Positions 4,777 through 63,950 of a stretch of 64,000 nt of DNA are shown one piece after another; position 1 is the stretch's first letter; each line of letters begins with the position of its first letter. This stretch comes from an uncultured bacterium (lineage in GTDB: Bacteria; Omnitrophota; Omnitrophia; Omnitrophales; Abzuiibacteriaceae): positions 1-64,000 of the forward strand of contig CAYLXA010000012.1 in NCBI GenBank assembly GCA_964387845.1. The letters are read 5' to 3'. The position numbers and the translations under genes were made by a program. The notes beneath the pieces were generated by a model. It did not search any database and was not told where the DNA came from. It was given only the letters and a program-made list of their open reading frames with translations.

Positions 4777-5277
4777 ATGAAAAACGTGTTGTCGGGTTTA
4801 TTTTTAGGAATGGCCTTGCTGGTCACATCATCCATTTATGCAGAGGAGGCCAAAGTGGCACAAGTTGCGGCAGGTAAAACGGTAAAATTTGATTACACGC
4901 TCACGGTTGATGGAAAAACAGTCGACAGTTCTGAGGGTGCAGAACCGTTGCAGTATGTGCACGGACAAAGCCAAATTATTCCCGGCCTTGAGAAACAAAT
5001 GGAAGGTTTGAAAGCCGGAGATGAAAAAGAAGTCGATGTTAAGTCTGACGAAGCATATGGTCCTGTCAATCCGAATGCGTTTGTCGAAGTTCCAAAGGAT
5101 AAATTGCCGGAAGGAGAGCTAAAGCCGGGCCTTCAACTTCATTCCATGGACAAGAGTGGCCAGCCGATCGTTGCAACAATTTCTGAGGTAAAAAAAGATT
5201 CGGTGGTCATGAATCTCAATCATCCGCTTGCGGGCAAGGACCTGCATTTTAAAATCAAAGTGGTTGAGGTTGTTTAA
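4777..5277 (+). CDS. FKBP-type peptidyl-prolyl cis-trans isomerase, secreted
   Basis: A signal peptide is followed by an FKBP domain (DYTLTVDGKTVDSS..., LAGKDLHFKIKVVEV). Confidence 0.7.
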   Translation: MKNVLSGLFLGMALLVTSSIYAEEAKVAQVAAGKTVKFDYTLTVDGKTVDSSEGAEPLQYVHGQSQIIPGLEKQMEGLKAGDEKEVDVKSDEAYGPVNPNAFVEVPKDKLPEGELKPGLQLHSMDKSGQPIVATISEVKKDSVVMNLNHPLAGKDLHFKIKVVEVV

Positions 5278-12731: not shown

Positions 12732-12802
12732 AGCGGGTGGAGGGAATCGAACCCTCGACTCCTGCTTGGAAGGCAGGGGCATTACCACTATGCAACACCC
12801 GC
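12732..12802 (-). tRNA. tRNA-Gly (anticodon UCC)
   Basis: The reverse complement reads GCGGGTGTTGCATAGTGGTAATGC...cuUCCaa...GGTTCGATTCC. Confidence 0.8.
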
Positions 12803-12804
12803 AA

Positions 12805-12890
12805 ATTAGAAATTCAAATCTCAAATCTCAAAATTCAAAACGACGGGCTTTTGATATTTGAAATTTGGATTTTGAATTTGTATAGACATC
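12805..12890. repeat. Intergenic imperfect hairpin with tandem AAATCTC units
   Basis: AATTCAAATCTCAAATCTCAAAATTCAAAA is mirrored by TTTTGATATTTGAAATTTGGATTTTGAATTT. Confidence 0.4.
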
Positions 12891-12917
12891 TTACCGATTT
12901 TTAGCGCGAAATCAAGA

Positions 12918-13484
12918 TTGCTGGACATTCGTGGTACAATGTTTCTCATGAAGCAAATCATCATTCTGGCCATGCACGGCCAATCACCCTCCGATTTTCC
13001 AAAGGCCGAAAAGATGGAGTTTTTCCGTCTGCACTCCCAATTGAGTCATTTGACAGGCAAGGCAAGGGAAGTAGCCCAAAAGCGTCATGACGAAATTGAG
13101 ATCAAAATGCGCAAGTGGCCCAGAACCCAAGAAAATGACCTCTACTACTTCGCTTCCTATGAATTAGCCGAAGCGCTCGCAAAAGCATCGGACAGCAAGG
13201 TGATTGTCGGTTTTAATGAGTTTTGCGCACCGGATATTGACCAAGCGATTGATGAAGCCGTTAAGCTTTCTCCCGATCAAGTCTGTGTGATTACCCCCAT
13301 GATGACTCGGGGAGGTGGCCATTCTGAACACGAAATTCCTGAAATCGTCCGGGAATCCCAAAAAAAGCACCCACAAGTACCTATAATGTATGTTTGGCCC
13401 TTCGACTCTTCTGCGATCGGAGAGTTCCTTGCAGCTCAGGTTGATCGTTTTTTGGCAGGAAAAACCGCCTCGAAACCCTCATAG
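12918..13484 (+). CDS. CbiX/SirB-like chelatase family protein (start probably the Met at 12948)
   Basis: LAMHGQSP and PMMTRGGGHSEHEIPE resemble the His-containing motifs of CbiX. Confidence 0.4.
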   Translation: MLDIRGTMFLMKQIIILAMHGQSPSDFPKAEKMEFFRLHSQLSHLTGKAREVAQKRHDEIEIKMRKWPRTQENDLYYFASYELAEALAKASDSKVIVGFNEFCAPDIDQAIDEAVKLSPDQVCVITPMMTRGGGHSEHEIPEIVRESQKKHPQVPIMYVWPFDSSAIGEFLAAQVDRFLAGKTASKPS

Positions 13485-13630
13485 TTGTATCCTTTTGACA
13501 CGTTTTATAAAAAAATTATAAGTATATATATTTAAACAACTTACGTAATTTTTTGCGAAACACCTAAAAAATCATTTTTATTCCTAAAAACCATACTCGA
13601 AAAAAAATCGTATTTTTTTCAAATTAACTA

Positions 13631-13658
13631 TTGACGAAGATTTTGGTTTTGATAGAAT
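13631..13658 (+). promoter_or_regulatory. Sigma70-type promoter (TTGACG -N16- TAGAAT)
   Basis: A near-consensus -35/-10 pair lies about 150 bp upstream of tRNA-Thr, rpmG, tRNA-Trp, secE and nusG. Confidence 0.55.
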
Positions 13659-13806
13659 GCTTCACCTTTTCGCTCTGGGGAAGACTGTGTAAGTTTGTTC
13701 AGTTTTCTCAGTTGTTCAGCGAAAAAAATTTCTAAATTGCTGCTGCCCTGACTTTGTCAGGACTGCATCAATAACAATCATCATTATTTATTTTTAGATG
13801 ATGATT

Positions 13807-13879
13807 GCTGCTGTAGCTCAGTTGGTAGAGCACGTCCTTGGTAAGGACGGGGTCATCGGTTCAATCCCGATCAGCAGCT
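13807..13879 (+). tRNA. tRNA-Thr (anticodon GGU)
   Basis: GCTGCTGTAGCTCAGTTGGTAGAGC...cuGGUaa...GGTTCAATCC. Confidence 0.85.
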
Positions 13880-14044
13880 GATTGTGAAAAGTTTTTTGGT
13901 AGAGAAGGCGGAAGTGTCGTGGTTTGGTGTCGCTGAAATTCTCCCCTCGAATCTGATGAGGGTCCTACCATCCATTAAGTCGAAGACACAAAAGCATTGA
14001 AAAACAAGACGGTGGAGTTTTTTCATTTTTTTTAATGGTTTAAG

Positions 14045-14194
14045 ATGCGCGAAATTATCACGTTAGCTTGTACCGAGTGCAAGCGGCGTAATTATACGAC
14101 TCGGAAGAATAAGAAGAAAACAACCGAACGGCTCGAACGGAAAAAGTTCTGCCGATTCTGCCGGAAACACACGGCTCACAAAGAAACAAAATAA
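14045..14194 (+). CDS. rpmG: 50S ribosomal protein L33
   Basis: Translation gives [50 protein letters not shown] Cys4 Zn-ribbon is present. It is missing from the ORF track because it is under 60 aa. Confidence 0.85.
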
Positions 14195-14231
14195 TGAACC
14201 AGGGTCGCGGCAGTTTGGCGTACGGAAACGA

Positions 14232-14302
14232 AGGAGCGTCGGTTAATGGTAAACCACCGGTCTCCAAAACCGGAACTGCAGGTTCGATTCCTGCCGCTCC
14301 TG
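14232..14302 (+). tRNA. tRNA-Trp (anticodon CCA)
   Basis: AGGAGCGTCGGTTAATGGTAAACC...cuCCAaa...GGTTCGATTCC. Confidence 0.85.
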
Positions 14303-54595: not shown

Positions 54596-55477
54596 TCAAA
54601 GTGCGATTTTCTCTTTTTTCTCAATTACCTGAGCCAAATTCAGAAAATCCTTCAGCAGCAATTCTTCCGCACGCTTTGTGGATTTGATTCCGGATTCTTC
54701 AAGCGCTGATTCAATTACGGCTTTTGGATAAATCTCGCGAAATCCGTGGCTCACGGCGTTTAAAACATTCTTCCTGCGCTCGTTAAAGGCAAACCGCACA
54801 ACCTCAAAAAACAAAGTTTCATTCACATTCGGTTCTTTTCCGTGAAAGACGAACTTCGCAACACTGGATTTTACTTTCGGTTTTGGTGAGAAGCAGCTCG
54901 GCGATACATCAAACTCACGTGTCACGTCCGCGTAAAACCTCGCAAGGATTGTCAAGCGCCCGTAGTCTTTCGTACCGGGCTGCGCGAGCATCCGGTCAAT
55001 AATTTCTTTCTGCATCATCAAAACCGCATAATCGATTAATTTCCGGTGGTTGATCAGAAACAAAACAATCGGGGTTGTGATGTAGTAGGGAAGATTACCG
55101 ACGACTTTCAGAAGTTTTGCACTTGGTTTTTTCTTAGGCAAAATTTTGGAAAGATTAAAACTTAAGATATCGCCTTCAATTACAGTTAGATTCTTACTTG
55201 AGCTTCCAAATTCAGATCTTAAAATATTGGCAAAGCGCGGGTCTTTTTCGATCACGGTGATATTAGCGCCGGTTAAAAGCAGCTGATCGGTCAAAGCACC
55301 GAGCCCCGGGCCAATCTCAAGCACCAAATCTTCCGGTTTCGCATCAACGAGAGCGATGATTTTGCGCTGAATATTGGGATCAATGAGGAAGTGTTGTCCG
55401 CGAATACCGGCAACCGTAATCTCATATTTACGAAGGAGTTCCAACTGTTTTTGCATTTGGGGATTATACGGCTTCAA
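54596..55477 (-). CDS. rsmA: 16S rRNA (adenine1518/1519-N6)-dimethyltransferase
   Basis: VLEIGPGLGALT and the remaining KsgA core are present. Confidence 0.9.
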   Translation of the reverse strand: MKPYNPQMQKQLELLRKYEITVAGIRGQHFLIDPNIQRKIIALVDAKPEDLVLEIGPGLGALTDQLLLTGANITVIEKDPRFANILRSEFGSSSKNLTVIEGDILSFNLSKILPKKKPSAKLLKVVGNLPYYITTPIVLFLINHRKLIDYAVLMMQKEIIDRMLAQPGTKDYGRLTILARFYADVTREFDVSPSCFSPKPKVKSSVAKFVFHGKEPNVNETLFFEVVRFAFNERRKNVLNAVSHGFREIYPKAVIESALEESGIKSTKRAEELLLKDFLNLAQVIEKKEKIAL

Positions 55478-55537
55478 GCTCCCGGCTACAAGCTACAAGC
55501 TTTTTGCCTGAAGCCTGTGGCTTGAAGCTTGTAGCTG

Positions 55538-61565: not shown

Positions 61566-61905
61566 GATATTTCTCTTCCGCTTTCCTCCGCGCGATGATT
61601 TTTAGCCTAACCGGCTAGACAAAAATCATCGTGCTCAGCCTATTCTGAAAAATTGAGCCATTCAATTTTTCAGCATAATGGCGCTCCAGAGAAATATCTC
61701 AGCTCCTCATGACCTATACGCAAAGGAGCTCAGAGAATGTTGCGAAGGCGGCTCGCGCAGCTCGTTGAAGCTTGGTCCCCCGCCGCTTTATTTTGCAAGC
61801 GAAGTAGCGGGGGTTCAACGAGCGAGCGCGCAGGCAGGCGCAAGCCGCGGGAGCGTGCGAACTGCCGGCGCCGGAGTAACATTCTCTGAGCTCTTGGCCT
61901 CTGCT
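61566..61905. repeat. Highly structured intergenic element: nested inverted repeats plus a roughly 170-bp GC-rich palindrome
   Basis: The outer IR is GAGATATTTCTCT/AGAGAAATATCTC. The inner IRs are CGATGATTTTT/AAAAATCATCG and CTGAAAAATTGA/TCAATTTTTCAG. The long arms are GGAGCTCAGAGAATGTT/AACATTCTCTGAGCTC. Mirror-image ORFs were predicted on both strands. Confidence 0.6.
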
Positions 61906-61916
61906 AAAACACTCGA

Positions 61917-61945
61917 TTGACAGGGAGAGGAGGGCAAGATAGAAT
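61917..61945 (+). promoter_or_regulatory. Consensus sigma70 promoter for hisG (TTGACA -N17- TAGAAT)
   Basis: Both hexamers are perfect or near-perfect, 28 nt upstream of the ATG. Confidence 0.65.
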
Positions 61946-61972: not shown

Positions 61973-62842
61973 ATGAAACTTAAGCTTGCATTGCCAAAGG
62001 GAAGCCTGGAAGAAGCGACTTACGATTTGTTCCGTAAGGCGGGCTTTAATATTGTGCCTACCTCGCGCTCTCTTTATCCCAGTGTGGATGATGAGGAGTT
62101 GGAAGTGGTGCTTTACCGTCCGCAGGAGATGTCGCGCTATATTGAAGACGGCGTCATTGATTGCGGCATTACGGGCCTCGATTGGGTTGCTGAAAATGGA
62201 TCCGACGTCCTGGAAGTTGCCGAGCTTTCCTATTCCAAACAAACCACGCGCCCGGTCCGCTGGGTTCTCGCGGTTCACGAAGATTCTAAATTTAAATCCA
62301 TCCAAGATTTGAAAGGCAAGAAAATCGCGACCGAGCTTATTAATGTCACTAAAAACTACCTGAAGAAACACAAAGTGAACGCCGAAGTGGAATTTTCGTG
62401 GGGTGCCACGGAAGGCAAGCCGCCGGTTTTGGCGGATGCGATTGTCGAAGCTACCGAAACGGGAAGCAGTCTTAAAGCCAACCGCTTGAAAATTATTGAT
62501 ACCGTTCTGGAATCGACCACGCGCTTTGTCGTCAACAAAAAGAGCAATCAGGATCCCTGGAAACGCCGCAAGATCGACAACCTGGTTTTACTTTTAAAAG
62601 GTGCTATGGCCGCGCGGAGCAAAGTCGGTTTGAAAATGAATGTTGCCAAGAAAGATTTGGAGAAAGTGATTAAGATCTTGCCGGCTTTAAAAAAGCCGAC
62701 GATTTCAAATTTGTCCAGTGATGGTTGGTACGATGTTGAAACCATTATTGACGAAAAGATTGTCCGAGAGATTGTGCCGGAACTGAAAAAAGCCGGCGCC
62801 TCGGGAATTGTTGAGTATCCATTAAATAAAGTAATTTTCTAA
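61973..62842 (+). CDS. hisG: ATP phosphoribosyltransferase, long form
   Basis: The long form is 289 aa and includes a C-terminal regulatory domain. Confidence 0.9.
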   Translation: MKLKLALPKGSLEEATYDLFRKAGFNIVPTSRSLYPSVDDEELEVVLYRPQEMSRYIEDGVIDCGITGLDWVAENGSDVLEVAELSYSKQTTRPVRWVLAVHEDSKFKSIQDLKGKKIATELINVTKNYLKKHKVNAEVEFSWGATEGKPPVLADAIVEATETGSSLKANRLKIIDTVLESTTRFVVNKKSNQDPWKRRKIDNLVLLLKGAMAARSKVGLKMNVAKKDLEKVIKILPALKKPTISNLSSDGWYDVETIIDEKIVREIVPELKKAGASGIVEYPLNKVIF

Positions 62843-62864
62843 ATATAAACGGGAGAGGTCAAAA

Positions 62865-62963
62865 GTGCCTTGCGGAAAAAAGCGTAAAAAAGCGAAGATG
62901 AACAAGCATAAGTGGAAGAAGAAACGCCGCAAACATCGCCATATGAAGAAGGCGTGGTCGTGA
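62865..62963 (+). CDS. Small Lys/Arg-rich protein, candidate bS22-like (AURKAIP1/DUF1713-type) ribosomal micro-protein
   Basis: A GGGAGAGG SD is 6 nt before GTG. Translation gives VPCGKKRKKAKMNKHKWKKKRRKHRHMKKAWS. An alternative ATG is at 62898. It is missing from the ORF track. Confidence 0.45.
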   Translation: MPCGKKRKKAKMNKHKWKKKRRKHRHMKKAWS

Positions 62964-62971
62964 AGAAAAAG

Positions 62972-63055
62972 AGGTAAGTGCTAAGTGGTAAGTGGTAAGT
63001 AATGGAAGTGTAATAGAATTTTTCTGTTACTTATCACTTATCACTGATCACTTAA
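62972..63055 (+). terminator. Hairpin with G·U wobble pairs on + strand RNA (AAGTGGTAAGTGGTAAGTAA / TTACTTATCACTTATCACT)
   Basis: The inverted repeat follows the micro-protein gene directly. It belongs to the same motif family as 250–330. Confidence 0.5.
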
Positions 63056-63059
63056 TGCT

Positions 63060-63950
63060 GTGAATTCTTTAATCGTTAAGTCGCCCGCCAAAGTTAATCT
63101 GTTCCTCAAAATTACCGGAAAAAGAAAAGACGGCTATCACACGCTGGTCACACTTTTCCATCGGGTCTCTCTTGCGGACGCACTAACGCTTCGAAAAATT
63201 CCTTCGGGAATTAAAATCAAGTCTAATGTTCAAAATCTTCCCAGTGATTCGCGTAATATTATTTGGCGCGCATTCAATACACTTCAAAAAGTGAGGCCGT
63301 TTAAAGGCGGCGTTGCCGTTACGATTAAAAAGCAGATTCCAATCGGCGGGGGAATGGGCGGCGGATCTTCAAACGCTGCTTCGTTCATGCTTGGCTTTAA
63401 TCGGCTCTATCAATTGAAAATTTCACGAAAAGAACTCTTCAAAATCGGTTCTCAGTTAGGAGCCGATGTTAATTTTTTTCTAGCCGATGTGAATCAAGCG
63501 GTGGGATCGGGTGCCGGTGACAAGATTGAGCCCGTTCGGTGCCGCGAAAGGCTTTGGTTTGTCATTGTAACGATGCCGAAACCGCTTCTGACGGTAAAAG
63601 TTTATAAATCATTGGATCTTAAATGTGTTTTGGCGGGAAAGTCGCGCTTGTTGACAAACCAAAAGCGGATTGCTAGACTTCTTGGCGGTCAGTCATTCCT
63701 CAGTCACTTCAACGTTTTCCCCGAACTTATACATAACGATTTGCAAAGCGCATGTCTTCGGCTTTATCCGAATGTCCGGAAAGTTATGCGGCTTTTGGAT
63801 GAAGGCGGGTCAATCAAAGCATTGGTTTCCGGGAGCGGGCCCACTGTTTTCGGGTTGGCAAAAAGCAAGCGCCAGGCGCGTCAGATTGCAGCGTATTTGA
63901 AGAAGCATTCTCGGTTTCATAAGAAAATTTTCATAGCGCAAACAGTCTGA
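63060..63950 (+). CDS. ispE: 4-diphosphocytidyl-2-C-methyl-D-erythritol kinase (GTG start)
   Basis: A GHMP kinase motif PIGGGMGGGSSNAA is present. The N-terminus is KVNLFLKI. Confidence 0.9.
   Translation: MNSLIVKSPAKVNLFLKITGKRKDGYHTLVTLFHRVSLADALTLRKIPSGIKIKSNVQNLPSDSRNIIWRAFNTLQKVRPFKGGVAVTIKKQIPIGGGMGGGSSNAASFMLGFNRLYQLKISRKELFKIGSQLGADVNFFLADVNQAVGSGAGDKIEPVRCRERLWFVIVTMPKPLLTVKVYKSLDLKCVLAGKSRLLTNQKRIARLLGGQSFLSHFNVFPELIHNDLQSACLRLYPNVRKVMRLLDEGGSIKALVSGSGPTVFGLAKSKRQARQIAAYLKKHSRFHKKIFIAQTV

Follow-up and report, generated by a model that had tools for sequence, protein, structure and literature searches.

The question raised by this locus is whether the narrow gap between hisG and ispE, lying close to the 3' end of the window (i.e. 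the whole stretch of 64,000 nucleotides of Omnitrophota DNA analysed in this study), harbours a gene for a ribosomal protein. A preliminary description, made from the letters of the DNA, had pointed here to a 32-residue basic micro-ORF with a strong Shine-Dalgarno (SD) motif, and had proposed for it the identity of a ribosomal peptide resembling bS22 (AURKAIP1/COX24/DUF1713). Known so far from Actinobacteria, Bacteroidota and Borrelia, the protein bS22 is described as a basic helix of 28-33 amino acid residues, about 60% of them being Lys or Arg (PMC10618245, PMC7797042, PMC12123416, PMC10081302). Based on the results presented below, the stretch 62865..62963 encodes, with a probability of about 0.9, a translated homologue of bS22.

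The micro-ORF and its annotation status

The micro-ORF occupies the positions 62865..62963 of the plus strand, exactly as given in the preliminary description, and consists of 32 codons with a GTG start and the stop codon TGA at 62961-62963. It encodes (f)MPCGKKRKKAKMNKHKWKKKRRKHRHMKKAWS, the first residue being fMet due to the GTG start and not Val, as it had originally been read. No in-frame start codon was found 5' of the GTG at 62865. The SD motif GGGAGAGG (62851..62858, plus strand), read from the sequence and likewise noticed before, is situated 6 nt before the GTG and downstream of the hisG stop codon at 62840-62842. The encoded peptide is very short and extremely basic, its 32 residues including 13 Lys, 4 Arg and 3 His, which corresponds to 53% of Lys and Arg. 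AlphaFold2, run with the single sequence, modelled one helix covering the residues 4-31 with a mean pLDDT of 90, a consistent but weak indication, a lone helix being non-discriminating; the modelled helix is straight and the bend reported for solved bS22 proteins is absent from it.

It had also been supposed that routine annotation would miss this gene, and that is indeed the case. The exact peptide has no match in a collection of 15 billion proteins, and the gap between hisG and ispE was left without any called gene when the Logan contig of this genome was annotated. Among 10 orthologous peptides looked up in the protein collection, seven are absent, two are named "hypothetical protein" and one is without a name. 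A phmmer search with the peptide against 1.84 billion representatives gave no matches at E <= 0.001, a result that is uninformative because a query of only 32 residues cannot reach significance in such a library.

Similarity to bS22 proteins of solved ribosomes

When the peptide was compared by phmmer with all chain sequences of the PDB, the best match was 8fmw_V, the "30S ribosomal protein bS22" from Borrelia (Borreliella) burgdorferi (bb0822), with residues 1-28 aligned to residues 1-28 and E = 1.2e-4. It was followed by 7jil_5 (bS22 from Flavobacterium johnsoniae, Fjoh_1533), 9i5v_10 (bS22 from Porphyromonas gingivalis) and then by chains of mS38, the C-termini of which align to the residues 5-24 of the peptide (KKKRKKKMNKHKYRK). 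The bS22 chains were the only meaningful matches in the PDB. The alignments to the three bS22 chains extend over the full length, i.e. from residue 1 to residues 28-29, including the MPCG N-terminus, the identity being 68% for B. burgdorferi, 59% for F. johnsoniae and 62% for P. gingivalis. Fourteen columns are invariant in the peptide and the three solved proteins, namely M1, P2, G4, K6, R7, K8, K11, H15, K16, K18, K19, R25, H26 and K28. A profile of 28 orthologues from Omnitrophota and Kiritimatiellota, the collection of which is described below, matched in the PDB just the same three chains, again in their full length, with E = 4e-11 to 1.4e-10.

Since a match between peptides that are basic and of low complexity may be trivial, two controls were run. 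A profile made from only the three solved bS22 proteins ranked the micro-ORF first among the 1919 six-frame segments of the window (E = 1.6e-5, the runner-up having 0.068). In the second control, the real order of residues scored 26.2 bits, compared with -6.9 +/- 3.1 for 5000 shuffles of the same composition, none of which reached the real score (maximum 7.6). The similarity to bS22 is therefore specific to the order of residues and not a matter of composition, and this order-specific match over the full length supports the family proposed in the preliminary description.

It has to be considered at this point whether the product could be a small basic peptide of another kind with a mere likeness to bS22, such as a mini ribosomal protein of the THX or bL38-like kind or a cationic peptide that is secreted or toxic, bearing in mind that short helices rich in Lys and Arg are hard to distinguish and that the curated models of bS22 miss the peptide. 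The matches in the PDB are, however, solely chains of bS22 and mS38, with no THX or other mini-protein at E <= 10, they are not only order-specific but also collinear from Met1, and neither a signal peptide nor a hydrophobic segment was found in the peptide, so that such an origin of the similarity is very improbable.

Concerning the individual relatives, bS22 from B. burgdorferi resembles the window protein also in its GTG/GUG start, in having been left unannotated by automatic pipelines and in the content of Lys and Arg, both lying at about 53-61%; the authors of the Borrelia study explicitly predicted, on the very grounds encountered here, that the protein would occur in other bacteria (PMC10618245). 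The window protein differs from it by a C-terminal extension of four residues (KAWS) and by W17 in place of Arg, and the two come from different phyla, Omnitrophota versus Spirochaetota. The Bacteroidota proteins from F. johnsoniae (7JIL) and P. gingivalis (9I5V), both of 30 residues and both annotated as hypothetical proteins, are likewise collinear with the peptide from Met1 and sit between h44 and h45, where they touch H70, but they begin with MPSG or MPNG instead of the MPCG of the window. Moreover, the ribosomes of Bacteroidota ignore the SD sequence, whereas clear SD motifs precede the gene in the window and its orthologues. The more remote relatives, i.e. the actinobacterial bS22 (Mycobacterium smegmatis MSMEG_0945, 33 residues; NF047430) and mS38/Cox24/AURKAIP1 (PF08213), share with the peptide the central basic core K-x-M-x-K-H/K-K; the peptide lies, however, far below the cut-offs of both models, and mS38 is longer than 100 residues and has the motif at its C-terminus.

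Curated family models

With regard to these models, the search with PF08213 (COX24_C, formerly DUF1713), which the preliminary description had suggested as a check, remained below the threshold, the peptide scoring 10.5 bits against the gathering cut-off of 23. This miss is not disqualifying because the solved bS22 proteins from Borrelia and Flavobacterium also fail, giving no match at all to PF08213; the one from P. gingivalis scored 11.7 bits. It is thus clear that PF08213 does not define the subfamily with the MPxG N-terminus. No match was obtained for the peptide in NCBIfam either, including the equivalog model NF047430 (ribo_bS22), which like PF08213 misses even the solved proteins from Borrelia and Flavobacterium.

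The syntenic orthologue from Kiritimatiellota, by contrast, passes PF08213 with 28.1 bits (cut-off 23), and it is the only orthologue that matches NF047430, although with 16.4 bits it stays below the cut-off of 34. Its matches to the chains of mycobacterial bS22, covering the residues 1-25, and to those of mS38 are weak and below the threshold (E = 0.45-1.4). Together, the PF08213 score and these weak matches provide a link between the MPxG type and the classical type known from actinobacteria and mitochondria. The current curated HMMs miss both the MPxG subfamily and the MPWA subfamily described in the following section.

Conservation and coding signature

The relatives of the micro-ORF were collected by a scan with the HisG protein over one genome per GTDB species, which yielded 80 loci; their six-frame translations were then searched by motif and subsequently by profile. 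The closest HisG in the scan, from a Candidatus Omnitrophota MAG (PCVY01000004.1), is 81% identical, and 60-74% identity was seen to many other MAGs of Omnitrophota (Omnitrophica). An intact orthologue of 29-36 codons is present in 44 other species-level genomes, on the same strand and 13-179 nt 3' of hisG, which answers in the affirmative the question put in the preliminary description, i.e. whether the reading frame is conserved in related genomes. The 44 loci are of the Omnitrophota type, some being labelled as "uncultured Planctomycetia" or "bacterium", with the addition of one Kiritimatiellota chromosome (CP120722.1). In the present analysis, the hisG context of a bS22 gene is established for Omnitrophota and Kiritimatiellota only. 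No bS22-like ORF was found in the loci of Lentisphaerota, Planctomycetota, Thermodesulfovibrionales, Bacillota and Desulfobacterota of the scan within at most 4 kb on either side of hisG. A motif of the GGAG type precedes the start codon within 22 nt in nearly all 44 orthologous loci, and three of the orthologues share the GTG start with the window copy.

The orthologues fall into two subtypes, MPCG[KR]KRK..., to which the window protein belongs, and MPWA[RKH]KQRK.... The MPWA copies and the one from Kiritimatiellota had not been part of the seed profile and were recovered by it nonetheless with E = 1.7e-9 to 3e-4, the best unrelated segment having E >= 0.67. The MPWA subtype represents a large subgroup of Omnitrophota (loci L003-L024 of the scan, e.g. 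L004 at 4890-4988), in which MPWA-KQRK replaces MPCG-KRK and the rest of the protein, including the C-terminal WS, is kept; the N-terminal switch from Cys/Gly to Trp/Ala may reflect a changed rRNA pocket in this subgroup. The orthologue from the complete genome of Kiritimatiellota bacterium B12222 (CP120722.1), MGSIKKQRRKKMSKHKRRKRRKLDRHKKK, is located 55 nt after hisG (L061, 4917-5006); it begins with MGSIKKQRRKKMSKHK and is of the MGSIKK type, similar to actinobacterial bS22 and mS38.

The substitution pattern in the aligned loci is that of a coding sequence. The mean column entropy at the codon positions 1, 2 and 3 is 0.54, 0.51 and 1.35 bits, respectively, i.e. 2.5-fold higher at the third position. 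A comparison of the window with L002, the relative closest to it, gives 14 synonymous differences on approximately 13 sites, which means saturation, and three non-synonymous ones on 68 sites; the pooled pN/pS over all pairs is about 0.23. All 45 loci keep the coding frame (+1) open, compared with 9 and 4 loci for the two remaining sense frames. The micro-ORF is thus a protein-coding gene under purifying selection.

These data bear directly on the idea of a chance ORF in an A-rich spacer, with the real function residing in a terminator hairpin or a small RNA. Such an idea may draw on the very short, low-complexity sequence rich in AAR codons, on the silence of all gene callers at this ORF and on the antisense frames, which are also open in most loci; this last feature is, however, a consequence of the AAR-rich codon content itself. 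The difference among the sense frames, the entropy at the third position, the saturated synonymous sites and the SD motifs before nearly all orthologues speak against it, as does the lack of a match to any Rfam family. Conservation of the orthologues, SD motifs and codon pattern effectively refute it, and the residual probability of a chance ORF is negligible.

Genomic neighbourhood

The gene upstream of the micro-ORF, hisG (61973..62842, plus strand), codes for the long form of ATP phosphoribosyltransferase with 289 residues, recognised above the cut-offs by TIGR00070 (178 bits) and TIGR03455 (110 bits) and also by the Pfam families HisG and HisG_C; LarB and TsaD are encoded further upstream of it. 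Downstream there is ispE (63060..63950, plus strand, GTG start), coding for 4-(cytidine 5'-diphospho)-2-C-methyl-D-erythritol kinase (TIGR00154, 208.9 bits against the cut-off of 138.7). The adjacency to hisG is observed in all 44 loci, that to ispE only in the closer Omnitrophota clade.

A promoter-like site, TTGACA-17-TAGAAT, agreeing with the consensus in 11 of 12 positions, was found by a consensus scan at 61917..61945 (plus strand), 27 nt 5' of the hisG start, and represents a candidate promoter for a transcript comprising hisG and the bS22 gene. No terminator-like site was seen between hisG and the micro-ORF in the scan. Taken together, the promoter-like site before hisG and the uninterrupted stretch behind it make it likely that hisG and the bS22 gene are transcribed together. 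It should be pointed out that an operon shared by a gene for a ribosomal protein and a gene of histidine biosynthesis is unusual, which counts against the assignment to bS22.

Just 5' of the promoter-like site, at 61726-61893, a perfect inverted repeat of 16 nt, GAGCTCAGAGAATGTT ... AACATTCTCTGAGCTC, encloses a GC-rich segment of approximately 170 nt. The folding energy of this segment is -106.7 kcal/mol (z = -5.9), and it contains mirror-image ORFs of 80 residues on both strands. No Rfam match was found for it, none of the 80 related loci has it and it occurs just once in the window; it may represent a structured RNA or else a small mobile insertion.

The hairpin noticed 3' of the ORF in the preliminary description is real. 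It is long and imperfect, composed of heptamer units (four times GTAAGTG and three times CACTTAT), and spans the positions 62975..63055 on the plus strand, so that its end is 5 nt away from the start of ispE; it is not followed by a U tract. Its folding energy of -40 kcal/mol (z = -7.5) was not attained by any of 200 dinucleotide shuffles. A simple terminator scan did not flag it because of the missing U tract, and Rfam at E <= 1 gave for it only chance-level matches to microRNA precursors, far below the gathering scores. Among the 22 relatives with an adjacent ispE, 19 have a hairpin of -23 kcal/mol or lower between the micro-ORF and ispE, and several (L013, L014, L004 and L020) possess canonical terminators with the U tract abutting the ATG of ispE; no comparable hairpin exists in three relatives, in which the micro-ORF is separated from ispE by only 3-25 nt. 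The sequences of the hairpins are unrelated between the genomes, the position and not a specific RNA being conserved. Given the hairpins at this place in relatives, several of them with a U tract, the one at 62975-63055 is probably a terminator or attenuator for the unit of hisG and bS22, or a stabiliser of its 3' end; as its own U tract is missing, the role in termination or attenuation is plausible rather than certain.

Periodic hairpins with units of approximately 7 nt are not confined to this gap, since further intergenic ones exist in the window, for example at 257-334, a similar palindrome of the GTAAGT type between tRNA-Tyr and tRNA-Thr, and at 55471-55528, with units of the GCTACAA type where an ORF of the minus strand and one of the plus strand leave a gap. 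In L002, L003, L011 and L016, periodic hairpins of the same kind, but with unrelated unit sequences, follow just after the micro-ORF. They may reflect a habit of the lineage to use tandem-heptamer terminators, or a REP-like element. As for the tRNA genes of the window, there are five of them (166-407 and 12732-14302). Two, Tyr-GTA and Thr-TGT, belong to the minus strand close to the beginning of the window, and three, Gly-TCC, Thr-GGT and Trp-CCA, are found around 12.7-14.3 kb, a layout that resembles the tRNA-flanked tuf/secE/nusG region of many bacteria, the likeness coming from the tRNAs alone.

The surroundings of ispE would also accommodate a regulatory uORF, or a leader peptide controlling ispE or the histidine genes through the hairpin, in place of a component of the ribosome. 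The micro-ORF lies directly 5' of ispE, the GTG of which at 63060 has no recognisable SD; in L006 and L007 it stops 3-11 nt before ispE, a distance that would permit translational coupling; and the peptide contains three His codons next to hisG. On the other hand, leader peptides preserve their codon content or a stalling motif and do not resemble, residue by residue and over the full length, a ribosomal protein known from other phyla, about half of the Omnitrophota loci no longer have the linkage with ispE although the peptide is unchanged in them, and the His residues are dispersed, two of them, H15 and H26, being invariant also in bS22 of Borrelia and Bacteroidota. The special case of a his-attenuator leader peptide was rejected, the ORF being located 3' of hisG, with no run of His, and the peptide rather than the codon content being conserved. 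A leader function in place of a ribosomal one is therefore as improbable as a look-alike basic peptide. The close spacing in L006 and L007 and the position of the hairpin suggest for ispE itself an expression by read-through or by translational coupling.

Proposed role of the bS22 homologue

According to the preferred interpretation, the product of the micro-ORF would be the small-subunit ribosomal protein bS22, the bacterial counterpart of the mitochondrial mS38, as a helical and highly basic protein of 32 residues. It would be translated from the GTG by means of its own SD motif, probably from a transcript shared with hisG, which the hairpin would end or attenuate before ispE.

In the solved ribosomes, bS22 resides in a pocket formed by h2, h27, h44 and h45 of the 16S rRNA, beside the decoding centre, and touches H68/H70 of the 23S rRNA, thus making an extra intersubunit bridge (PMC10618245, PMC7797042, PMC12123416). 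By homology with the ribosomes of Borrelia, Flavobacterium, Porphyromonas and Mycobacterium, the peptide would insert into the same 16S rRNA pocket next to the decoding centre, contact the 23S rRNA at H68/H70 as an extra intersubunit bridge and stabilise h44; both its incorporation into the ribosome and its binding site are predicted from the sequence. The window itself contains no 16S rRNA, the Rfam search at the gathering threshold having found only tRNAs.

In M. smegmatis, bS22 is non-essential and its loss raises the sensitivity to aminoglycosides through the contacts of Lys16 with h44 (PMC10081302). K16 is invariant in the 28 orthologues and the three solved homologues; its equivalence to the mycobacterial Lys16 relies on the apparently ungapped match of the residues 1-25 of the Kiritimatiellota protein to the residues 1-25 of 32nj_x, with a non-significant E of 1.3, and on the published description (PMC10081302).

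Implications for the bS22 family

The micro-ORF from Omnitrophota is an unannotated new member of the known bS22 family and not a new kind of system; in the literature search, no paper mentioning bS22 together with Omnitrophota or Omnitrophica was found. The view of how bS22 works is unchanged by this finding, and cases of this kind had already been predicted in the study on Borrelia. The patchiness of the known distribution of bS22 is mainly due to the small size of the gene, which is below the reach of both gene callers and curated models.

The product of hisG is the first enzyme of histidine synthesis, consuming ATP and PRPP and being under feedback control by histidine. A tempting, albeit unlikely, view is that the pair of hisG and bS22 is an ancient functional unit extending from Omnitrophota to Kiritimatiellota (PVC), with bS22, known also from Actinobacteria, Bacteroidota and Spirochaetota, being a widespread, possibly ancestral and systematically overlooked protein of bacterial ribosomes, and with a co-transcription that could tie the composition of the ribosome to the nutritional state. 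The synteny of the pair is an observation; regulatory coupling and ancestry go beyond the synteny data.

Two lineages, the uncultivated phylum Omnitrophota and, with one genome, Kiritimatiellota, are thus added to a family whose members adjoin the decoding centre and the aminoglycoside site of the ribosome, and the gene has in them a fixed genomic address just after hisG. This rule of synteny, together with the seed alignment comprising both the MPCG and MPWA subtypes, should be useful for the construction of better HMMs.
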